From positions 1-64,000 of the IMG/VR virus record IMGVR_UViG_3300032030_000024: a stretch of DNA of 64,000 bases. The stretch is one strand, 5' to 3'. Source of the stretch: a virus (taxonomy: Duplodnaviria; Caudoviricetes). Position 1 is the stretch's first letter. Every line of letters begins with the position of its first letter. The notes beneath the pieces were generated by a model. It saw only the letters and a list, made by a program, of their open reading frames with translations. It had not been told where the DNA came from and searched no databases. Shown one piece after another: positions 1,326-45,006 of the stretch. A program made the position numbers and the translations under genes.

Positions 1326-1539
1326 AACAAACACAGATTCAACGGATTACACGGATTAAGATACACGATATGAAGGTACTTGACCGTTTATATTATATTA
1401 ATGTTCGCGTAATGATAGAGAGAAATGCCGTAAACGCAAGAAAAAGAGAGTGTTACGGCATTTTTACAGCTAACAGAAGCTAAAGACGCGCCTTATATGC
1501 AAAATAGAGCTAACATATTTGGATATAAGACACCTTATT

Positions 1540-1613
1540 CGTACCTTTGTACCAACAAAACGAAACAACCCCTTAGAACCCCGCAACGTAAAGGCCAGTT
1601 GCAAACGAGTATG
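1540..1613 (+). promoter_or_regulatory. Bacteroidota sigma-A promoter plus conserved leader (copy 1)
   Basis: TACCTTTG at 1542-1549, then ACCAACAAAACGAAAC..CCCTTAGA..ACGAGT-ATG, similar to the copies at 36523-36601 and 47069-47140. Confidence 0.6.
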
Positions 1614-2543
1614 AATACCAATAAGTCCCTTACCGAGCTGACAAACGAGATTCTGACCGCCAGAATGAGTGCCAACAAGAAGCAAGAAGCCCTTGTAAAG
1701 CTTGGCGTAACGCCATACGAGGCAATGGTGCTTGCCCGCGCCTCGATGCCCCTGCCGACGCCACGCGGCCACCGTACCCGCCCTGCCATCTTCACCTACA
1801 CCTTTGGCGTAGAGATAGAGTGCGTAGGTTGCTGCTACACCGACTTCTTCAACGCTGCCCGCCGCAACGGACTCAGCGTGTACGACCAGGTGTATTACAA
1901 CCACCGCGACATGCCTCAGTACAAGCTGACCACCGACAGAAGCATCAACGGCACGAACCCTGCCGAGTGCGTCACGCCAGCCCTGAACAGCACGGACGGC
2001 TTTGAGAGCCTACAGGCATGCTGCAATAGCCTGCGCGAAATTGGCGCTACCGCCAACAGCAGCTGCGGACTGCACGTACACATCGGCGCAGCCAGCCTTA
2101 CCGACCAAGAGTACTGCAACGTCTTCGTGAACTACATGCGCCTTGAGACCGCCATCGAGAGCTTTCTCGCACCGAGCCGCAGAGGACGAAATGCCCGCTG
2201 GTGCGCAAGCCTCCGCAAACACGAGTACGCAGTGCTCGATGCCACCACAAAGAATGATATGCGGGCTGCCCTGGATAACAACCGCTACCACAGCGTCAAC
2301 GCCAACGCCTACAGCGCCCACAGCACCATCGAGTTCAGACAGCATCAGGGCTCGACCAACTTCACCAAGATTAGCCATTGGGTAAAGTTCTTAGGCAAGC
2401 TGGTAGAGTTCAGCAAGACCAACCGCCTCACCGAGAACATCGACCGCATCGAGGACATCCCCTTCTTGACGCAGACCGAGAAGAACTGGTTCGCCAGCCG
2501 CAGACGCGAGTTTGAGGCTCGTACAGGCCGCAGAGTGGCATAA
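1611..2543 (+). CDS. amidoligase family protein (COOH-NH2 ligase)
   Basis: TFGVEIE, ECVTP, SCGLHVHIG and TIEFRQHQG motifs; start placed at 1611 after the conserved ACGAGT leader. Confidence 0.85.
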   Translation: MNTNKSLTELTNEILTARMSANKKQEALVKLGVTPYEAMVLARASMPLPTPRGHRTRPAIFTYTFGVEIECVGCCYTDFFNAARRNGLSVYDQVYYNHRDMPQYKLTTDRSINGTNPAECVTPALNSTDGFESLQACCNSLREIGATANSSCGLHVHIGAASLTDQEYCNVFVNYMRLETAIESFLAPSRRGRNARWCASLRKHEYAVLDATTKNDMRAALDNNRYHSVNANAYSAHSTIEFRQHQGSTNFTKISHWVKFLGKLVEFSKTNRLTENIDRIEDIPFLTQTEKNWFASRRREFEARTGRRVA

Positions 2544-2647
2544 AGGCACAATCACCCCACCGCCAGCAAGAAAACGCGACGGTGGGGCTTGAAACCGCCT
2601 CAGACACAAACGAAAAAAGTCAAACCATCAAACAATAAAAAACGATT

Positions 2648-3187
2648 ATGTGCGTGATAATAATACGTCCGGCAGGTAAAAGCCTGCCACCGAAGAGTGA
2701 ATTGAGAAAAGCCTATAACATGAACCACGATGGCTGCGGATTCGTCAGCAAGTCCACGTCCTATCACAGCATGGACTTCGAGGACTTCTACGAGCACCTG
2801 AAGGCCGTCCCGAAGAGCGAGCCTGTCATCATACACTTTCGGTGGGCTACCCACGGGTCTGTGAGCATCAAGAACACCCACCCGTTCTACGACAAGGCCA
2901 CGGACACCTACTTCGCCCACAACGGTGTACTCCCGATTACACCGCACGGCGACAGGACGGACAGCGAGGAGGCATTCCGCAAGTACCTCGTGCCGGCCAT
3001 CAAGAAGGACGGCTATGACGGCGACATGCTCAGATACACCGTCAACCAGATTATCGGTGGCAGTAAGTTCGCCTTCATGCACGAGGGCAAGATAAAGCTC
3101 TTCGGACACTTTGAAGAATACGGCGGTTGCCTCTACTCAAACCTGCGTCACCTGCCTTACAGCAGGGCGTGGTTTATGGCAAGCTGA
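2648..3187 (+). CDS. class II (Ntn) glutamine amidotransferase-like protein
   Basis: N-terminal MC, NHDGCG, HFRWATHG, NTHPF, FAHNG and TDSE motifs; the usual amidoligase partner. Confidence 0.85.
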   Translation: MCVIIIRPAGKSLPPKSELRKAYNMNHDGCGFVSKSTSYHSMDFEDFYEHLKAVPKSEPVIIHFRWATHGSVSIKNTHPFYDKATDTYFAHNGVLPITPHGDRTDSEEAFRKYLVPAIKKDGYDGDMLRYTVNQIIGGSKFAFMHEGKIKLFGHFEEYGGCLYSNLRHLPYSRAWFMAS

Positions 3188-3964: not shown

Positions 3965-4177
3965 AATGGTGATATTTTCGGCAAAGATAACACTTTTTTC
4001 GGGATTGCAGCAAAAAAGTACAGAAGTTTAGGGTTTTTTGGAAGTCTGGCAACATGGGGCATGGTGTCAAAAACGAAAATATTTGGTAACAAAACATATA
4101 ATGGGTAATATATGCAAAATATAGCTAACTTATGCCAAAACGGTAGTCCAAACTATGCATATATTAAATATATTTCG

Positions 4178-4185
4178 TATCTTTG
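4178..4185 (+). promoter_or_regulatory. -7 promoter element upstream of scaffold A, array A and dCas12f
   Basis: TATCTTTG matches the Bacteroidota TAnnTTTG consensus, about 50 nt upstream of scaffold A. Confidence 0.65.
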
Positions 4186-4235
4186 CATCATATTACGAAA
4201 ACGAGCATGACGAATGAAACAAGCAACAATATTTC

Positions 4236-4287
4236 GGGCGGGCTGTACCGCCTTAACGTAAGGGCATCAGCCACTTATGAAGTACCT
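4236..4287 (+). ncRNA. tracr/omega-like scaffold A
   Basis: GGGCGG-GCTGTA-CCGCCT hairpin (loop complementary to repeat end TACAGC); CGTAAG/CTTATG hairpin; GTACCT complementary to repeat AGGTAC; abuts repeat A1. Confidence 0.75.
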
Positions 4288-4446
4288 CCTGTAAAGGGTC
4301 TGAATATTCAAGGTACATACAGCTACTTTATCATTTCAGATTCTCCTGTAAAGGGTCTGAATATTCAAGGTACATACAGCGCTGGAGCAGTTGCCTGAGA
4401 AACTGGTGCGCCTGTAAATGGTATGAATATTCAAGGTACATACAGC
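4288..4446 (+). CRISPR. CRISPR array A (3 x 36-bp repeats)
   Basis: CCTGTAAAGGGTCTGAATATTCAAGGTACATACAGC at 4288 and 4345, variant at 4411; spacers 21 and 30 bp. Confidence 0.8.
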
Positions 4447-4485
4447 GGCAGCCGTTATACAAAAAAATACAAAAACGGTAACAAT

Positions 4486-5637
4486 ATGGTAATAACAAGA
4501 AAAATTGAGGTCTTCGTTTGTGAGGACGACAAAGACCTTCGTAGGGCATACTACGATAAGCTCTATGCCAACAGAGACATAGCCGTGAAAGTGGCAAACA
4601 TGGCAATGAGCCACCTCTTTGCCCTTGACAACACCATGCCATACCTTTCGGCTGAAGACAAGGAGCTGATAGAGTTCCTTGGCGTGAGGGGCAACAAGGC
4701 CACGAAGCAGAACGCACCATACGTTGCCGCGAGCGAAGCATTCAAGGGTAAGGCCGACATGGGCACAATTTCCTGTGTGCTACAGAACGCGCAGAAGATG
4801 TACGCGGATGACCGCAAGCGCGGCATGTGGGACAGGTCGTTGCGCTCCTACAAGCAGAACATGCCAGTGCCGTTCAAGGCCGGCAGATTCCTGAACCTCC
4901 GCTTTGCTGAGTACACCAACGGCGAGGGTGAGAAGCGCGAAGGCTGCTTCTTCACACTGATGGGCGTACCCTTCCAGATGCGCTTCGGGCGTGACCGCAG
5001 CGGCAACAGGCTCATCGTAGAACGCGTGATTAGCGGAGAGTACAAGATGTGCACATCATCGCTCAAGTTCGACGGCAAGAAGGTCTTCCTGCTGCTCTGC
5101 ATGGATATTCCCAAGAAGGAGGTGAAGCTCGACGAGAAAAAGACTATGTATGCCTACCTTGGCGTGATGAATCCTATTATCTGCACCTGTGACGTGAGGG
5201 CAGCAAAGGAGTATGACAGCGGGTATAAGTGGTGGGAGATTGGCACGAAGGAGGAGTTCAACTACCGCCGCCGCCAGATTCAGGAGGCCGTGCACCGCTG
5301 CCAGATAAACAACCGCTATTCCGAGGGCGGCAAGGGGCGCAAGCGCAAGTGTCAGGCTATTAAGCGCTGGCACGAGAAGGAGAAAAACTACGTTGACACC
5401 AAGCTCCACACCTATAGCCGTATGCTCGTCGACCTTGCCGTGAATCACGGATGCGGCAAGATAGTGCTGCTCAACCAGACGACACGTGAGGACAAGGCAA
5501 AAGAGGACAACCAGAACGGTGAGCCCTTTGTGCTGCGTAACTGGAGCTACTACGGATTGAAGGACAAGATTTCCTACAAGTGCAAGATGGTGGGCATAAA
5601 GATGATAGTTGACAAGGATAAAGAGAATGAAGAATAA
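4486..5637 (+). CDS. cas12f: Cas12f-like protein, predicted nuclease-dead (383 aa)
   Basis: C-half resembles AsCas12f1 (GGKGRKRK..HTYSRMLVDLAVNHGCGKI..LRNWSYYGLKDKISYK); RuvC-I GIDLG reads YAYLG, RuvC-II MEDL reads LLNQ; the protein ends before the Zn finger/RuvC-III; the ORF-track start at 4423 lies inside repeat A3. Confidence 0.85.
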   Translation: MVITRKIEVFVCEDDKDLRRAYYDKLYANRDIAVKVANMAMSHLFALDNTMPYLSAEDKELIEFLGVRGNKATKQNAPYVAASEAFKGKADMGTISCVLQNAQKMYADDRKRGMWDRSLRSYKQNMPVPFKAGRFLNLRFAEYTNGEGEKREGCFFTLMGVPFQMRFGRDRSGNRLIVERVISGEYKMCTSSLKFDGKKVFLLLCMDIPKKEVKLDEKKTMYAYLGVMNPIICTCDVRAAKEYDSGYKWWEIGTKEEFNYRRRQIQEAVHRCQINNRYSEGGKGRKRKCQAIKRWHEKEKNYVDTKLHTYSRMLVDLAVNHGCGKIVLLNQTTREDKAKEDNQNGEPFVLRNWSYYGLKDKISYKCKMVGIKMIVDKDKENEE

Positions 5638-5648
5638 GACAAAATACC

Positions 5649-5699
5649 GGGTACGCTGTAGTGCCTTATGCGGAGGTTTGACCACTCCGTAAGTTGCCT
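5649..5699 (+). ncRNA. tracr/omega-like scaffold B
   Basis: GGGTAC-GCTGTA-GTGCCT hairpin; GCGGAG/CTCCGT hairpin; GTTGCCT complementary to repeat AGGCAAC. Confidence 0.75.
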
Positions 5700-5723
5700 T
5701 TCCGTTTGACTTCTAAAGAGTTA

Positions 5724-5862
5724 GGTGTAACACATCCGAAAAAGTAGGCAACATACAGCAAAACCAAGAACGTATTAAATTGAGCAATAGGTGTGACACA
5801 TCCGAAAAAGTAGGCAACATACAGCCGTAAGCATAAACAGACCATTACGGCAATCGGTGTAA
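5724..5862 (+). CRISPR. CRISPR array B (2 full 36-bp repeats plus a truncated third)
   Basis: GGTGT(A/G)ACACATCCGAAAAAGTAGGCAACATACAGC at 5724 and 5790; two 30-bp spacers; GGTGTAA remnant at 5856. Confidence 0.75.
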
Positions 5863-5907
5863 TAAGCAACGTACATTCCATGTAGATTCAGACAAATAAA
5901 AACTATT

Positions 5908-6186
5908 ATGAACAGATTCGCATTAGACACAAAAGTTAGCGGCATGGCCTTGGACGAGTACATGGCAAAGCTGATTGAAAAAAACGAAAAACAGGATATA
6001 GATATTGAGCGCGGAAAGCTCACCGTGAGCATACTGAAGCAAATGAACAACCGTTCCCGACTCCTTATTGATGCCGCGAAGTTTGAACTAAAAAGTCGCG
6101 ACTTCGTGAGAGAGGCGGTTGCCGCTCTTGAAACTGCCTCCCCTAAAGAAACGGAAAAAGAACATAAAGACAAAGATGCAGCATAG
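5908..6186 (+). CDS. small helical phage protein between arrays B and C
   Basis: 92-aa ORF; IERGK..ILKQM..RLLIDAAKF resembles a widespread uncharacterised phage family. Confidence 0.7.
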   Translation: MNRFALDTKVSGMALDEYMAKLIEKNEKQDIDIERGKLTVSILKQMNNRSRLLIDAAKFELKSRDFVREAVAALETASPKETEKEHKDKDAA

Positions 6187-6202
6187 CAATGTGCTTCCCA
6201 AC

Positions 6203-6254
6203 GGGGCGGCTGTACGCCCTTGTCGTAAGGCTGACAAGCACTTATGAACTATCT
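6203..6254 (+). ncRNA. tracr/omega-like scaffold C
   Basis: GGGGCG-GCTGTA-CGCCCT hairpin; CGTAAG/CTTATG hairpin; CTATCT pairs with repeat AGGTAG (one G-U); same length as scaffold A; abuts repeat C1. Confidence 0.75.
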
Positions 6255-6620
6255 GTTGTATGAGCATACAAAATGAAAGGTAGATACAGCTGAAAAACAG
6301 GAATCCTAAATTTTCGTGAGGTTGTATGAGCATACAAAATGAAAGGTAGATACAGCTGCAAGGGATGCGAGAACAGGAAGATACGTGTTGTATGAGCATA
6401 CAAAATGAAAGGTAGATACAGCTTCCATTGGTGGGTAATATCCTGCTTGCGCGTTGTATGAGCATACAAAATGAAAGGTAGATACAGCAAACGCAGCACC
6501 AAGTCTTGTGCACCCCAAGTTGTATGAGCATACAAAATGAAAGGTAGATACAGCACCGAAAAATAAGTACCTGATTTCATTATAATTGTATGAGCATACA
6601 AAATGAAAGGTAGATACAGC
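6255..6620 (+). CRISPR. CRISPR array C (6 x 36-bp repeats, 5 x 30-bp spacers)
   Basis: GTTGTATGAGCATACAAAATGAAAGGTAGATACAGC at 6255, 6321, 6387, 6453, 6519 and 6585 (last starts with A); unique 30-bp spacers. Confidence 0.97.
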
Positions 6621-6703
6621 GAAGTGCAACATTGTGCTGAAGAAATTGGTGACGTTACGTCAATGTAAATATATAATTGCCCGTGAGGGTAGACCTCTCT
6701 TGC

Positions 6704-9091
6704 CTATAGAAAATCCGAAAGTATCTGCGAGTCGGATGCTCCACCGATAAGGCTCCCACGCTCCACAATTCCCGTTAGGCAGTCGCAGTTTGATACAAGT
6801 ATTCCGTTTGCATAAAAACAACCGACATCTTCAACGGTGATATTATACACGTCCTTTAGGGTGGAGGTTTTTGTATGTTGTGCTACATGAATGGGAACAG
6901 AATTTGCGGTCTGGGCGACTTGGTTTCGCCTTTCCGTATTTAAATTCTTTTCCACATTGTATGCAAACTGCTGTGTATGTAGGTTGGTGATAATAGTACA
7001 TTTCGCAGCACTTGTCGCTACAGAAGCTTGCATCCGTGTAGACAGATAAGAAACCACGTCCACAATACCTGCAAATACTGACCTTTTTCTTTTTTTTGCA
7101 ATGTGCGTGTACTTTATGCCATGCTCTCCCCTCTTCACTTCTGTGCCATTCCGTTGCAGCAGCACATCTTTCGTATTGATGCACAGCCATCTTCTCGCGG
7201 TATTCAGGATCTTGCCACCTCTTCTTGCCATGTTCCGATAAGTGTTGCTTAATCGGTAAACACTCCAAATTGCTGATGTCGTTATTAAAAGTATTGCCGT
7301 CCTTGTGATGAATGCAGCAGTCTTTAGGTACTTCCCGTCCATTATAAAACTCCCACACAGCGACATGCAGGCTCTTAGCACCTTTTCGTCCTTCGTTGCT
7401 CTTTGACTGACTGAGATAATACCTTCCCTTCCCCATAAGACGGTATTCGATTCCGTTGAAAGTAATAATCTGTTTAACCTCCATTTCATCTGCTCTTTAA
7501 ATCCGTACAAAGATAAAGCTTTTTCATCACACTTGCAAATTTCTTTAAACTCTTTAGCATTGAAAACACGATGTCCTTCTGTGGCAGTCAAACCAAAACG
7601 TTTTATAACATTTTTATGGCCTGTTTTCCCACTTGCAAGTACTTTTCGCAAGCCAAAAGGAGTAATAACATAATCTCCAACCTTGACATTTTCTATGTTC
7701 TTGTTACCCCATAAAGTAGCGACTTTAGTACCTGCTACAAAACAATGGTCGTCGTGAGCATTGTTTCCCTCCTTTCGGTAGGACTTCACTCCGCTGGCAA
7801 ACTCCGGCCACCTGCGTTCCCAATTCGACGGAAAGATTATCATGTTGTTCACCTCTGCCGACCGTTGGAAGATGCGTACCTGCTTGTTCTTCGTCTGCGT
7901 AAAAGGCAAGAAGGTGGTCTTTGCGTTGCCATACTCACGGCACAGCCTTTCCACGTTCCTTCCAAACGTCCTGCCACCGTTGTTGCTCTCGATGGCACAG
8001 TAGCGCACCTCGTCCTTCGACAGCATCTGCGCTTCTGCCTGTTCCGTGTATTCCATCGACTTCTTCGTAAACAAAATATCAATGATATAATAGCCGTCCT
8101 TCATGGCGAGGTAGTCGATGGAACAGAGGTAATCAGCTCCCGTGTCTGCCGTGTCGGTATAGTTGCAGACCACTCCAAGGCGTTTGTTCGGCAGTATGTC
8201 GTAGGTCTTGAACGGGTGCTCGTACATCAGGCCTTCCATCGGGGTCGGGTTTTGCATGTACTGAGTCTCAAAGACAAAGCTGTTGGCGTTGTTTATCTTG
8301 TCAAGTTCCTCTACGGTGAACTTGTACGGCCACAAGGACTGTCGCTCACCGTTCTTATCTACAGATATGGCTGGCAGGGAAATCACCCTCCAATCGTCTG
8401 GCTCCACCTCCTGCAAATAGCCGCAAAGGTCATGCTCATGCAATCGCTGCATGATGATGACAATAGGCGTGTTGCGGGAATTGACACGGTTACGGATGGT
8501 TGTCTCAAAGCGGCGGTTCACGCGCTCACGCACCACGTCCGACAGGGCATCCTCTGGCTTGATGGGGTCGTCGATGACAATAGCACCGCTGAAACGGTAC
8601 GGTTCCCCCTCTTTTTCGACGAGACCTGCACCGAAGCCTGTAATCTGGCCGAGCGTAGAAGTGGCGTAAAGCCCGCCTCCCTGGTCGGTGTCCCACTGGC
8701 TCTTCATGTTCTTTCCGTATGTGATGCGGGTGGGGTAGAGTGACCTATAAGCCTCAGACTGCACTATCTGCTTAACGGCGATAGAGTTGTCCTGTGCGAG
8801 GTTTGCAGAGTAGGAAAGGTGGATGAAACGGGAAGCAGGATTGACCGCCAAGCCCATAGCGATGAAGTTCTTGACGGCAATCTCTGTTTTGCCCGACCTC
8901 GGAAAAATGTTGATGATGAGCTTGTTGCACTTGCCGTTGAGCACGTCATCGAGCGCATCACAGATGAGCTTATGGTGTCCACCTATGATGAACTTCATGT
9001 CGTGCCCTTCCTTGAAGAAGTAGCGTGTGAAGTTGAGCGAGCTTTTCAGCGTCCACGCCCGCAGGATGTCGGTGTCGTACAGTTCAGCCAT
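6704..9091 (-). CDS. terL: terminase large subunit, intein-containing
   Basis: Walker A PRSGKT, IVIDDP, IMQRLHE, YMQNP, IESNNGG; the joined extein reads HDDH-CDCLTG. Confidence 0.93.
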   Translation of the reverse strand: MAELYDTDILRAWTLKSSLNFTRYFFKEGHDMKFIIGGHHKLICDALDDVLNGKCNKLIINIFPRSGKTEIAVKNFIAMGLAVNPASRFIHLSYSANLAQDNSIAVKQIVQSEAYRSLYPTRITYGKNMKSQWDTDQGGGLYATSTLGQITGFGAGLVEKEGEPYRFSGAIVIDDPIKPEDALSDVVRERVNRRFETTIRNRVNSRNTPIVIIMQRLHEHDLCGYLQEVEPDDWRVISLPAISVDKNGERQSLWPYKFTVEELDKINNANSFVFETQYMQNPTPMEGLMYEHPFKTYDILPNKRLGVVCNYTDTADTGADYLCSIDYLAMKDGYYIIDILFTKKSMEYTEQAEAQMLSKDEVRYCAIESNNGGRTFGRNVERLCREYGNAKTTFLPFTQTKNKQVRIFQRSAEVNNMIIFPSNWERRWPEFASGVKSYRKEGNNAHDDHCFVAGTKVATLWGNKNIENVKVGDYVITPFGLRKVLASGKTGHKNVIKRFGLTATEGHRVFNAKEFKEICKCDEKALSLYGFKEQMKWRLNRLLLSTESNTVLWGREGIISVSQRATKDEKVLRACMSLCGSFIMDGKYLKTAAFITRTAILLITTSAIWSVYRLSNTYRNMARRGGKILNTARRWLCINTKDVLLQRNGTEVKRGEHGIKYTHIAKKRKRSVFAGIVDVVSYLSTRMQASVATSAAKCTIITNLHTQQFAYNVEKNLNTERRNQVAQTANSVPIHVAQHTKTSTLKDVYNITVEDVGCFYANGILVSNCDCLTGIVERGSLIGGASDSQILSDFL
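6788..7744 (-). mobile_element. intein in TerL (319 aa)
   Basis: starts CFVAGTKV, ends VYNITVED..FYANGILVSN followed by C. Confidence 0.9.
6843..7484 (-). CDS. HNH homing endonuclease in an alternative frame inside the TerL intein
   Basis: LHVAVWE..IHHKDGNTFNNDISNLECL HNH motif plus CxxC zinc ribbons; frame differs from terL. Confidence 0.85.
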   Translation of the reverse strand: MEVKQIITFNGIEYRLMGKGRYYLSQSKSNEGRKGAKSLHVAVWEFYNGREVPKDCCIHHKDGNTFNNDISNLECLPIKQHLSEHGKKRWQDPEYREKMAVHQYERCAAATEWHRSEEGRAWHKVHAHCKKKKKVSICRYCGRGFLSVYTDASFCSDKCCEMYYYHQPTYTAVCIQCGKEFKYGKAKPSRPDRKFCSHSCSTTYKNLHPKGRV

Positions 9092-40968: not shown

Positions 40969-41460
40969 TTAGAAAGTCTTCAACTTTAATTCGTCCGTCA
41001 AGAAGTAGTAGCCGTGAATACCTCTTTTTGTAAGCTTTTCCACCTCTGTTTTCATTCTCTCATTCCATTTATCAAACTGAAACACTACTAAGTCTGCGCC
41101 TTGCCTGCCTATGGCATCATCCGCATGACGTTTTATGTTGTTATGGCTACCAAGCCTTTTTAAGTCTGCAAGGACACCATTTATCCTTATATCCGGCGAT
41201 GGTATGCCGGGAATCTCATTCAGATGCTCAACGGTAAAACCTTGTGAAGCGAGGAATTTAGCCATCTGCTGCTCCTTCCTGTACTTATAGTATTCGGTCT
41301 TATTTGTCTGCCCGAAATTATACCTACGTTCATCAGTAAGGAGTTGACCGCCATTTTCGTAATAGACAACAGGTGTATATACGTTTGAGCGATTGGCTAC
41401 ACCCATGACGTTCTGTGGCACCCAATCTTCTTCCTTGTATATATACGTTTCTCTTGCCAT
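40969..41460 (-). CDS. divergent leader-family protein with CdiA-like nuclease domain
   Basis: MARETYIYKEE..PQNV; SPDIRINGVLADLK..RQGADLVVF; paralog of 10962-11522. Confidence 0.7.
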   Translation of the reverse strand: MARETYIYKEEDWVPQNVMGVANRSNVYTPVVYYENGGQLLTDERRYNFGQTNKTEYYKYRKEQQMAKFLASQGFTVEHLNEIPGIPSPDIRINGVLADLKRLGSHNNIKRHADDAIGRQGADLVVFQFDKWNERMKTEVEKLTKRGIHGYYFLTDELKLKTF

Positions 41461-41463
41461 ACG

Positions 41464-42672
41464 TTACTCTTTCTTCTCCTGCTTCTCCTTCTGAGCGTAG
41501 TCGTGGCATACTCTCCGAAGAGATTGTTGGATACAATCGTGACTGCCGCTTTGGATAACCTCTGAGGTCTTACCATCACTCTCCAATTCGTAGATGCCCC
41601 TACGAAGTATGTTGTTAGCCGCCAGCAGGTCGCGGTCGTGAATCGTTCCGCATTCATGGCATACCCATTGCCTGTCCGACAACTTCAACTCTTTGTTTAT
41701 ATATCCGCACTCGCAGGTCTTGGAAGATGGGTAGAAGCGGTCTATCTTGTGAACCACAACACCGTACTTCGTGGCAATGTACTCCAACTTCTGAACGAAA
41801 TCCGCATGGGCGAGGTCGTGCATCTTCCTTCCCCAACGTCTGTTCATCCCTTCAAGGTTCAAGTCCTCGATGAAGATGGTGTCGTACTTTCGGCATAGTT
41901 CGTGGGCGAGTTTCCATTGGAAATCGCTGCGCCTATTGCAGATGTCGTTCATAAGATGGTCTAAATCCTTACGCTTGCGCTCACGGTTGCTGCTGCCCTT
42001 CTTACACTTGCTGAGATTGCGGCTTCTCCTGCGTAACTCGACAAGGCTTCCTTTCAAGAACTGAGGATTGTCGTAGGCCGTGCCGTCCGACAAGGTTAGG
42101 TACTTCTTCAAACCGAAGTCAATGCCAACGGATGCACCTTTGAGTGTCTTTCCGTACTTGCTCGGCTCTGCATCTGTGACAATAAATATATAATATTCTC
42201 CGATACGGCTTCTGTATAAAACTACTCTCTTAATTCTTCCTTCATATTGTCTACTTTTGTAATATTTGAATGACTTTCCTAATTGTACAAACGATATACT
42301 ATTTTCTTTTAAATCACACACATTTACACTCCATTTTCCATGATTACAAACGCCTTTAAAAACAATACTTGAGAAGTCCTTTGCTTTCTTAAATTTTGGA
42401 GGACGACTTGCAATATGGTTAAAAAATCTTTTGCAAGATTCATCAAGACGCTCAAGGATTTCTTGTACAGCCATAGCACTAAGCAGTTTCCTTTTTATTC
42501 TTTTTGCTTGATGCTTCTGCATATCATAGAGCGATATATATTTTCCAAATAACCTATAATATCTTTTATATAATGCCAAAGCATGATTCCATACAAAGCA
42601 AGCCTCGTTCATCATCGCATCAAGATACTTGGTGCGATGTGTCCGATAGAGTTTATACTTGTACGTCATCAT
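41464..42672 (-). CDS. tnpB: IS200/IS605 TnpB RNA-guided nuclease (catalytic residues intact)
   Basis: YKYKLY HTH, GIDFGLK, IFIEDL, PSSKTC, CxxCG.IHDRDLLAANN. Confidence 0.93.
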   Translation of the reverse strand: MMTYKYKLYRTHRTKYLDAMMNEACFVWNHALALYKRYYRLFGKYISLYDMQKHQAKRIKRKLLSAMAVQEILERLDESCKRFFNHIASRPPKFKKAKDFSSIVFKGVCNHGKWSVNVCDLKENSISFVQLGKSFKYYKSRQYEGRIKRVVLYRSRIGEYYIFIVTDAEPSKYGKTLKGASVGIDFGLKKYLTLSDGTAYDNPQFLKGSLVELRRRSRNLSKCKKGSSNRERKRKDLDHLMNDICNRRSDFQWKLAHELCRKYDTIFIEDLNLEGMNRRWGRKMHDLAHADFVQKLEYIATKYGVVVHKIDRFYPSSKTCECGYINKELKLSDRQWVCHECGTIHDRDLLAANNILRRGIYELESDGKTSEVIQSGSHDCIQQSLRRVCHDYAQKEKQEKKE

Positions 42673-44784: not shown

Positions 44785-44933
44785 AATCCTTAGAAAATTA
44801 CCGATTCAAAAACTCATATATTCTCTTTGTCGTTTGTGCGGAAGGCGAAGGATTCTAACCTCCCGTATAATAAACCTACTTCGTTTCGCAACGGTTCGGT
44901 GTCGTGATATTATGAAAATAATAAAGACTGTTG

Positions 44934-45006
44934 TGGAGCTTGACGGAATCGAACCGACGACCTTCTGCTTGCAAAACAGACGCTCTCCCAACTGAGCTAA
45001 AACCCC
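44934..45006 (-). tRNA. tRNA-Ala(UGC)
   Basis: GGGGTTTTAGCTCAGTTGGGAGAGCG-TCTGT-TTTGCAA-GCAGA-AGGTC-GTCGGTTCGATTCCGTC-AAGCTCCA; G3:U70 pair; CCA not encoded. Confidence 0.92.

Follow-up and report, generated by a model that had tools for sequence, protein, structure and literature searches.

The first 64 kb of a linear 123,590-bp virus record of IMG/VR (IMGVR_UViG_3300032030_000024), which comes from sheep-gut metagenomes and is about 85% complete, were analysed as one stretch of DNA, referred to below as the window. The subject of the analysis is a module in this window in which a gene for a nuclease-dead Cas12f protein (dCas12f) is accompanied by three clustered regularly interspaced short palindromic repeat (CRISPR) arrays. 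The phage identity genes of the record encode the large terminase (TerL), the major head protein, a tail protein, a DnaB-type helicase and DNA methyltransferases. A tyrosine recombinase is encoded in the record outside the window, and the carrier is probably a temperate, rumen Prevotella-type phage. The module is positioned at the boundary between gene blocks, adjoining the terminase gene, and comprises the following features (ORF, open reading frame; tracrRNA, trans-activating CRISPR RNA):

4178-4185, + strand: Bacteroidota-type -7 promoter box TATCTTTG, which probably serves as promoter for the entire module
4234-4287, + strand: scaffold A, a tracr-like leader fused directly to the first repeat of array A; scaffold plus repeat, 90 nt
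4288-4446, + strand: CRISPR array A, three repeats of 36 nt; spacers at 4324-4344 (21 nt) and 4381-4410 (30 nt)
4381-4410, + strand: spacer A_s2, matching at 25-29 of 30 positions a 142-145-aa ORF (sense strand) of a mobile-element-like module in Prevotella
4486-5637, + strand: dCas12f gene, 383 aa, with D replaced by Y224 and E by L329, and no Zn-finger/RuvC-III part
5647-5723, + strand: scaffold B, the tracr-like leader of array B; scaffold plus first repeat, 113 nt
5724-5825, + strand: CRISPR array B, two repeats; spacer at 5760-5789 and trailing 30 nt at 5826-5855; no target found in the searches described below
5908-6186, + strand: small accessory ORF, conserved, 92 aa, predicted to form a single long helix
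6201-6254, + strand: scaffold C, the tracr-like leader of array C; scaffold plus first repeat, 90 nt
6255-6620, + strand: CRISPR array C, six repeats and five spacers of 30 nt
6291-6320, + strand: spacer C_s1, nearest to the leader; 30/30 match in the phage-like metagenome contig L130
6357-6386, + strand: spacer C_s2, with a protospacer in a non-array context on a contig of the rumen RNA run X2
6621-6650, + strand: spacer C_tr, at the trailer end with no intact repeat after it; matches a DUF3127-like ORF

The preliminary description of this DNA, which was made from its letters alone, had reported one array upstream and two arrays downstream of the gene, with eight internal spacers, and we located all of these repeats. 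They are 36 nt long, begin with NNTGT and end with ATACAGC, and their internal sequence differs between the arrays. Three things were added to that picture: a private scaffold in front of each array, the small ORF at 5908-6186 as a part of the module, and a ninth spacer, since the 30 nt at 6621-6650 (C_tr) behave as a real one. A degenerate third repeat of array B (10/36 identity) and a terminal repeat of array C (15/36 identity) were rejected as unsupported.

The ORF of the effector starts with the ATG at 4486 and stops at 5637; a longer frame, from 4423, would begin inside the third repeat of array A. In a phmmer search of the PDB, residues 4-375 of its product aligned to residues 9-364 of the 365-aa 9n9c (E 2.6e-54), the solved "Nuclease-deactivated Cas12f" of Flagellimonas, with about 30% identity, and residues 69-373 aligned to the active Al3Cas12f (9nzo, E 5e-36). 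The RuvC-I aspartate of active enzymes (VDLGI) is aligned with Y224 (AYLGV), and the RuvC-II glutamate (IQMERL) with L329 (IVLLNQ). The alignment does not extend past residue 414 of the 506-aa active enzyme, and the protein therefore lacks the Zn-finger/RuvC-III part. Thus, both the double substitution and the early C-terminus that had been noticed in this Cas12f-like ORF were recovered in alignments to solved proteins. The NCBIfam profile guided_TnpB was matched over positions 51-338 of 389 (E 1e-17). The comparison of structures proposed in the preliminary description pointed in the same direction: an AlphaFold2 model (pLDDT, the predicted local distance difference test, 86.8) retrieved 9n9c and 9n9m first in Foldseek (E 1e-30 and 5e-29), followed by active Cas12f, TnpB, Cas12k and Cas12m, the Cas12m structures being distant matches (E about 1e-6 to 1e-7). 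The protein is therefore homologous in sequence and fold, over its full length, to the characterised dCas12f, and like it has the RuvC residues substituted and the C-terminal Zn-finger/RuvC-III part removed. With the catalytic D and E and the RuvC-III region absent, the active, double-stranded DNA-cleaving RuvC of type V-F is not predicted for it.

The loss of the nuclease is not peculiar to this phage. All 17 members of the clade that were compared have Y or F at the RuvC-I position and L, M or V at the RuvC-II position, and their C-termini end at the same place. When homologues were clustered at 50% identity, the 119 representatives combined an intact D, an intact E and the C-terminal tail only from about 35% identity outward. 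Pairwise ratios of nonsynonymous to synonymous substitution (dN/dS) in the clade (n = 17) were 0.02-0.13, with synonymous sites saturated in many pairs. The nuclease loss is fixed across the clade, and the protein is under strong purifying selection. This bears directly on the view that the module no longer has any function and is what decay has left of a phage Cas12f system that was once active, to which the loss of catalytic residues and of the C-terminal third and the lack of adaptation genes could point, and which the preliminary description had named as fatal to its own claim. We give this view practically no credence. The dN/dS values effectively refute it; homologues are numerous (n = 849), the best 120 of them sharing at least 80% identity at lengths of 377-405 aa; throughout the clade the same substitutions are fixed; and, as described below, the RNA scaffolds covary, the spacer content turns over and the locus is represented in RNA libraries. 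The effector thus appears, from sequence, to be a conserved and selected, nuclease-dead Cas12f on a phage that would be unable to cut its targets.

Each array in the module is preceded by a scaffold of its own. To an alignment of 24 leader and first-repeat units from 13 loci we applied RNAalifold and explicit pair counting, and four helices were supported: hairpin 1 (with the loop GCTGTA), hairpin 2, an anti-repeat and a pseudoknot. The anti-repeat, GTNNCCT, pairs with AGGNNAC in the 3' half of the repeat, and 6/6 of its pairs change on both sides. The pseudoknot is formed between the loop of hairpin 1 (GCTGTA) and the last six bases of the repeat (TACAGC). In the 24 units, 97.4% of the cells expected to pair did so, as compared with 36-47% when partners were slid; changes on both sides were found in 17 of the 26 pairs, and the covariation score was 0.51 versus <0.1 in controls. 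In three units of the related phages L002 and L009, in which repeats end with ACAAC, the loop reads GTTGTA, so that a C-G pair of the pseudoknot is replaced by U-A. Within the window, each scaffold fits the repeat of its own array (GTACCT with AGGTAC in A, GTTGCCT with AGGCAAC in B, and CTATCT with AGGTAG, including a G-U pair, in C). The covariation thus suggests a tracrRNA whose anti-repeat pairs with the repeat, as in type V-F. A related phage, L007, additionally carries a stand-alone unit (6153-6315, + strand) composed of a scaffold, a single repeat and a guide, about 4 kb downstream of its dCas12f gene; to judge from its sequence, this is a natural single-guide form that coexists with arrays.

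Related phages have the same architecture with different spacers. In two of them, L002 and L009, the trailer-end spacers are common to both and the leader-end spacers differ, which is the polarity expected of spacer acquisition. Within array C of the window, the leader-proximal C_s1 matches its target at 30/30 positions, and the trailer-end C_tr at 25-27/30, with mismatches mostly at third codon positions. From these sequence patterns, the arrays look active. Cas1 was not found in five phage records, including this one, a search in which Cas2 and Cas4 were not sought separately, so that of the cas1/cas2(/cas4) adaptation genes typical of a type V-F locus only cas1 is known to be missing here. 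Since there is no Cas1 in the phage, new spacers presumably come from the machinery of the host. No Tns-type gene was present among the annotated genes in the 48 kb around the locus, and Sigma70 region 2 was not found in six phage records (this one and five related ones, two of them at least 91% complete). The preliminary description, which had seen no cas1/2/4, Tns or sigma factor gene adjacent to the module, thus held for Cas1, for σ region 2 and for annotated Tns genes.

Whose DNA the guides would address was asked, as the preliminary description had recommended, by searching the spacers against Prevotella genomes and viromes. Targets were found for four of the nine real spacers of the window (A_s2, C_s1, C_s2 and C_tr) and, in addition, for one spacer of a related phage, in other elements, in line with the foreign origin of spacers in type V-F systems. 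C_tr matches, at 25-27 of 30 positions, the sense strand of a 91-aa DUF3127-like ORF in the six Prevotella loci checked at the sequence level, and its first 22 nt are exact in five loci from four genomes. By BLAST, about 10 of 401 genomes of the genus Prevotella contained a match to C_tr, and the matches to C_tr and to A_s2 each came to about 10-12 of the 401. The gene targeted by A_s2 is the neighbour of that targeted by C_tr; in one genome (G064:C51) a single contig carries both protospacers, on the same strand and separated by about 585 bp. The mismatches of both spacers fall mostly on third codon positions. The targeted module has the order S24 repressor of the LexA/CI type, 91-aa DUF3127-like ORF, 142-aa ORF or Rha/KilAC antirepressor (the latter in some genomes only), BT4734_N/DUF3987 primase-like gene and M15 peptidase, and was seen in four Prevotella genome loci (L119:7211-12789, L114, L120 and L121). 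Of 381 genomes of the genus Prevotella, 101 encode members of the family of the 91-aa target protein, often several per genome. As a separate observation, a gene for a canonical DUF3127 protein (4684-5058) was seen in the related phage L007, near the dCas12f locus of that phage.

The other targets are phage-like or come from the same kind of environment. C_s1 is identical at 30/30 positions to a site in the 4.8-kb metagenome contig L130 (4159-4188), which is intergenic; an ORF 125 nt downstream of the site has a virion-structural match in PHROG. The flank of this target was also present in the rumen runs X1 (DNA) and X2 (RNA). The A_s2 protospacer occurred in its native context in a third rumen run, X3 (RNA). 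The sheep-gut runs contain the locus, and unaligned ends of their contigs carry the C_s1, C_s2 and A_s2 protospacers in native context, so that these targets are present in the same samples as the phage. In the X3 contig, the only one of its kind, TGA instead of TCA stands just 5' of the A_s2 protospacer, corresponding to a Gln-to-Glu codon change, and this variant may be an escape by mutation of the target-adjacent motif (TAM). Finally, a spacer of the related phage L003 matches 27/30 positions of another related phage, L007, inside a 310-aa ORF. The three intragenic protospacers, including that of the L003 spacer, all lie on the sense strand, and the guide would thus pair with the template strand; the intergenic C_s1 protospacer has the same sense as the genes that flank it. 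The 5' flanks were TCA, CCA, GCA, TCC, TGA and CAG, with TTG for the L003 orthologue, from which we tentatively read a preference for C at -2 and A at -1.

Other searches set the background for these matches. The first 20 nt of C_s2, C_s3 and C_s4 had no match in exact scans of IMG/VR, array B gave only chance-level matches in the 401 Prevotella-genus genomes, and the seven-spacer array of L003 had no match in 381 of them. When 53 spacers of related phages were compared with 455 kb of related phage genomes, there was one clear match, that of L003 to L007, and one marginal self-match in G002 and G005 (23/29, E 0.008). Of 248 spacers, including those of bacterial dCas12f loci, only the two of the window matched the Prevotella target loci. 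We discarded isolated 20-22-nt matches of C_s4 and C_s2 to single genomes, which are at chance level for 401 genomes, and a 24/30 match of C_tr in G364, which lies in an unrelated 578-aa ORF. Taken together, the matches suggest that the targets are rival or host-resident mobile elements of the Prevotella/rumen community and not core host genes. The preliminary description had proposed a multiplexed RNA-guided regulator with which the phage would silence or rewire genes of the host or of competitors. Its competitor part agrees with the arrays, the scaffolds and the mobile-element targets, while silencing itself is a prediction; its host part was only partly borne out, because the targets were found in mobile-element-like modules and not in core genes of the host.

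The guides might, alternatively, control the phage's own genes, for instance those of the lysis-lysogeny decision or the late genes, as TldR- and σE-type systems do at fixed sites. The module does lie at a gene-block boundary next to the terminase, and the related σE systems autoregulate (PMC13472631). However, when the 16-nt seeds of 11 guides (8 internal and 3 trailing) were compared with the 123.6-kb record, none of the 11 matched it beyond what shuffled sequences gave, about 15% of the genome lying outside the record. Moreover, the spacers are not conserved between close relatives, and four of them have external targets. We regard self-regulation as very improbable. A seeming enrichment of 5'-anchored 11-mers had hinted at self-targeting, and the comparison of 16-nt seeds with shuffles left nothing of it.

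The reading that we consider probable is that the module is a phage-borne, CRISPR interference (CRISPRi)-like system that acts on rival mobile elements by binding only, with a non-cutting effector derived from type V-F. A single promoter at 4178 would give a transcript on which scaffold A and array A are followed by dcas12f, then by scaffold B with array B, the helical ORF and, last, scaffold C with array C. Each scaffold would fold into two hairpins and contact the repeat of its own array twice, by the anti-repeat (GTNNCCT/AGGNNAC) and, next to the guide, by the pseudoknot of the loop (GCTGTA/TACAGC). With the first repeat this pairing would occur in cis and so produce a natural single guide, about 90-113 nt long without the spacer; with later repeats it would occur in trans, as with a tracrRNA. 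dCas12f would load these guides, by homology as an asymmetric dimer, and form R-loops on matching DNA that has a short flanking motif on its 5' side (tentatively, C at position -2 and A at -1); this DNA would be bound and not cleaved. In view of the homology to the solved dCas12f, R-loops that are guided by RNA and not followed by cleavage are what one would expect by default. The guides would address other mobile elements, namely one multicopy chromosomal module of Prevotella and at least two phage-like sequences. Within genes, pairing with the template strand would block RNA polymerase, in the orientation known for dead Cas12a. For the latter (ddCpf1), repression was about 330-fold when the template strand was targeted and at most 6-fold on the other strand (PMC5460296), and all intragenic targets of the phage system are in the effective orientation. 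The outcome would be the silencing of early, antirepressor or replication genes of the rival, that is, CRISPRi as a weapon between elements in the hands of a probably temperate phage.

RNA data were available in the form of contigs assembled from two metatranscriptomic runs of one sample. At 4176-6300 these contigs had a depth of 18-56, compared with 0-9 at the flanking genes and 0 at 3982-4175, and they were also without cover, at the contig level, at 6504-6697; a DNA run covered the region evenly throughout. The TATCTTTG box occurs 12 times in the window, and only one of the occurrences (4178-4185) is on the + strand of the locus. The depth profile fits, as a weak indication, a transcript that starts at the 4178 promoter.

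Several points weigh against this roadblock interpretation. That the effector loads the guides, that it binds DNA and leaves it uncleaved, that repression follows, which TAM is used and where new spacers come from are all predictions from sequence and homology. The 5' flanks are not uniform, which makes the TAM uncertain. Only four of the nine real spacers have targets: in the searches above none was found for the spacers of array B, the short A_s1 and three of the C spacers. The targeted Prevotella module may be a satellite, a cryptic prophage or another island: neither an integrase nor a capsid gene was seen within 18 kb of it, and the A_s2 and C_tr protospacers had no match in exact scans of IMG/VR. 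Spacers would have to be acquired without Cas1-Cas2, and the RNA contigs could include DNA. Above all, the only characterised relatives, the dCas12f-σE systems, use the same fold to activate transcription, and targets on the sense strand are as compatible with activation, at a distance of 46 bp downstream from the TAM, as with a roadblock.

Activation as in dCas12f-σE would mean that a σ factor or a polymerase adaptor of the host or of the phage docks on the effector and transcription starts about 46 bp downstream, so that resident genes are switched on or hijacked. The nearest solved and characterised relative does exactly that (PMC13472631; 10.1101/2025.06.10.658880), and the truncation of RuvC that is filled there by the C-terminal domain of σE is conserved in the phage clade. 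In addition, in 4/4 targets for which an orientation could be given, the guide has the sense of the downstream genes, as activation requires. Even so, we think it unlikely. Sigma70 region 2 was not found in the six records mentioned above. The phage does encode a 181-aa LuxR/GerE helix-turn-helix (HTH) protein (G000 73022-73567, - strand; L124:9022-9567; E 6e-14), whose gene lies outside the window, 67 kb from the locus; its C-terminal HTH is the only σ region 4-like match, its N-terminal 118 aa are unassigned, and no counterpart of it was found in the 91%-complete relative G002. Bacterial relatives linked to σE or SusD are only 33-41% identical to the phage protein, and the phage clade has arrays and a helical ORF instead. 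Three of the targets lie inside ORFs and not upstream of operons, and σE systems have fixed guides, in contrast to the varied spacers of the phages, which turn over. Thus, the lack of a σE gene in the records searched, the diverse and changing spacers and the targets inside genes of rivals argue against activation at fixed sites and for a roadblock.

The small ORF between arrays B and C introduces another candidate mechanism. Its homologues, of 72-84 aa in relatives and with 25% to 61% identity to the window copy, are present in every readable locus of the phage clade, usually just upstream of the upstream array. The modelled structure is one long helix (pLDDT 84), and no family of Pfam or PHROG was matched. 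dCas12f could thus be a targeting module that finds DNA for a separate effector, which would destroy or nick the bound element or block its replication; the conserved 75-92-aa helical protein, a nuclease or helicase of the host, and the phage's own nucleases are candidates for that partner. The outcome would then be genuine interference and not the silencing of transcription. The synteny of the small ORF with dCas12f across the whole phage clade and its lack of a known family are in keeping with such a role, as is the presence of a replication-module gene neighbourhood among the targets. The truncated RuvC surface is, moreover, a proven docking site in σE systems (10.1101/2025.06.10.658880). 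On the other hand, the 17 loci compared have no conserved nuclease, helicase or transposase gene adjoining the system, the model of the small protein, one helix, contains no catalytic fold, and a recruit-and-destroy mechanism needs no template-strand bias. We find this mechanism doubtful.

A related thought starts from the same surface. In σE systems the truncated RuvC is complemented by the C-terminal domain of σE, which docks there (10.1101/2025.06.10.658880), and by analogy the phage dCas12f may need a partner likewise. As this face serves as a docking site in those systems, a partner-dependent mechanism is possible, perhaps through the helical ORF. The face would then be filled by a partner other than σE, with the helical protein as the best candidate, and binding would be coupled to RNA polymerase or another machine that reprograms resident elements, an idea to which we attach a low probability. 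If true, the phage would own an adaptive system that acquires spacers and does more than occupy the DNA of resident mobile elements: these would be switched on, hijacked or destroyed. A virus would thus carry a hybrid of CRISPR activation (CRISPRa) and CRISPRi that is natural, heritable and can be updated.

Whichever mechanism operates, the closest known counterpart of the phage system is dCas12f-σE of Bacteroidota (Hoffmann et al. 2026, PMC13472631; structures 9n9c/9n9m, 10.1101/2025.06.10.658880). The two have in common an effector homologous over its full length, the loss of the same RuvC residues and of the tail, a host phylum (Bacteroidota), and a scaffold of about 90-113 nt with the guide at its 3' end; guide RNAs of the σE type were measured at 85-105 nt (PMC13472631). 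In contrast to σE systems, the phage system is phage-borne, and no σE gene was found in the phage records searched; there is no operonic rpoE beside dcas12f. Where σE systems have one or a few fixed guides of 14-16 nt, directed to promoter-less sites upstream of susCD operons, the phage has CRISPR arrays with fast-changing 30-nt spacers, whose targets are other mobile elements and often lie inside ORFs. The position of σE and an HTH protein is taken in the phage by the small helical ORF.

Also close are an rpoE-less "distinct cluster" of dCas12f, mentioned in PMC13472631 (Extended Data Fig. 1a,b) as lying next to CRISPR arrays with covarying upstream putative guide RNAs, and the intermediate in the scenario of PMC10691335, in which dead Cas12f with arrays precedes the fusion of tracrRNA and half repeat. 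The phage module shares with these the dead Cas12f beside arrays, a covarying putative guide RNA upstream and a proposed role as a repressor, and it fits the inferred stage before the tracrRNA/half-repeat fusion. The published examples of the cluster differ in being bacterial (a Chitinophagaceae metagenome-assembled genome, MAG), with a guide on the promoter of an efflux pump. In the portions of PMC13472631 and PMC10691335 consulted, neither a phage carrier, nor multiple arrays with private scaffolds, nor spacer turnover, nor the targeting of mobile elements is described.

With canonical type V-F Cas12f (Un1, As, Cn and Al3), the phage system shares 36-nt repeats with a similar 3' half, spacers of about 30 nt located 3' of the repeat, a tracrRNA with two repeat:anti-repeat contacts, one of them next to the guide, and a miniature effector of the same fold. 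An array of 36-37-nt repeats and ~30-nt spacers beside the effector gene, which characterises type V-F, is present here and also in relatives. In the phage, however, the effector is dead and about 100-150 aa shorter, a tracr-like element is fused upstream of each array, and one protein is accompanied by three arrays with different repeats.

Binding-only immunity is known in type V from Cas12m and Cas12c, which are host-encoded and keep their RuvC residues, using them for RNA processing. By analogy with these proteins and with dead-Cas12a CRISPRi (PMC5460296), which belong to other protein families, RNA-guided binding in the phage system would block transcription without cutting; the orientation of the phage targets matches the template-strand preference of dead Cas12a. 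A phage-carried, RNA-guided DNA binder is known in the form of TldR on prophages (10.1101/2023.11.30.569447, PMC13418256). TldR was, however, derived independently from TnpB, and represses a host gene with one ωRNA, which overlaps the 3' end of the gene for TldR and has a fixed guide, whereas the nearest relatives of the phage protein are Cas12f and dCas12f and its guides come from arrays with upstream scaffolds. Phages that carry CRISPR systems include ICP1, with a type I-F system directed against PLE (a chromosomal island), and huge phages; both cut their targets, and many phage systems lack Cas1-Cas2 of their own. As in the module of the window, these binders and CRISPR systems are turned by a phage on elements that reside in the host or compete with it. 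The ICP1 system resembles the present one in targeting a chromosomal island and differs from it by cutting, while the phage system combines a dead effector with diversifying arrays.

Thus, dCas12f, the bacterial rpoE-less and CRISPR-linked dCas12f (in a brief mention), TldR on prophages, binding-only type V systems and phage CRISPR systems without Cas1-Cas2 are already known. The combination of a phage carrier, one dead effector with several private-scaffold arrays, spacer turnover and mobile-element targets was not found in the literature searched. It would be a natural case of a virus that uses a nuclease-dead effector and diversifying arrays against rival mobile elements, and it would extend the biology of dCas12f from bacterial gene regulation by fixed guides to conflict between elements. 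It also appears to represent the evolutionary intermediate that was placed by Altae-Tran et al. between the immunity function of Cas12f and regulators coupled to σE, in which the effector is already dead while the arrays and a tracr-like scaffold, separate from them and adjacent, are retained. It raises the questions of what the phage gains from binding alone and of how spacers are added without Cas1-Cas2. As one 383-aa protein apparently serves three pairs of repeat and scaffold, the module could also provide orthogonal, compact guides for multiplexed CRISPRi.

The dCas12f gene is found in a phage context in 12 IMG/VR loci and in contigs of rumen assemblies, with a Mu-type portal, a Clp protease and an Acb2/Tad1-like gene nearby, and related loci are on viral contigs of 65-135 kb. 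In genome collections, homologues with at least 47% identity come from Prevotellaceae, Bacteroidales and Paludibacter MAGs and from the isolate Prevotella sp. P2-180. Since the latter is in culture and carries a 66%-identical system with an array, experiments are feasible. At 33-41% identity follow the bacterial dCas12f proteins of Sphingobacterium, Parapedobacter, Leadbetterella and others, which have either a 266-285-aa ORF directly upstream or a SusD gene; in the one example scanned, the 270-aa upstream ORF of Sphingobacterium carries σ region 4. A blastn search of GenBank phages (INPHARED) with the arrays and the gene returned only chance-level matches. A bacterial subgroup with 39-41% identity (L045, L046, L048, L050, L055 and L067, from Bacteroidales, Muribaculaceae and Rikenellaceae MAGs) has the dCas12f gene about 150-250 nt 3' of a SusD-like gene and not after a σE gene.

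Several other features of the window were recorded. The 795-aa large terminase ORF (6704-9091, - strand) contains Hint/intein-like sequence in its C-terminal half, and a 213-aa HNH_3 endonuclease ORF (6843-7484, - strand) lies inside it in another frame of the same strand; the Hint and HNH_3 sequences may represent an intein or a homing-endonuclease insertion. A full-length TnpB of 402 aa, with OrfB_IS605 and a Cas12f1-like TNB zinc-ribbon domain, is encoded at 41464-42672 (- strand) and is adjoined by a CdiA_C-like nuclease ORF (40969-41460, - strand). Just upstream of the module (1497-3187, + strand) are an Amidoligase_2 ORF (348 aa) and then an ORF like class-II glutamine amidotransferases (179 aa), a pair that is also present in the related phage G003. 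Finally, a tRNA-Ala (TGC) gene is located at 44933-45006 (- strand).

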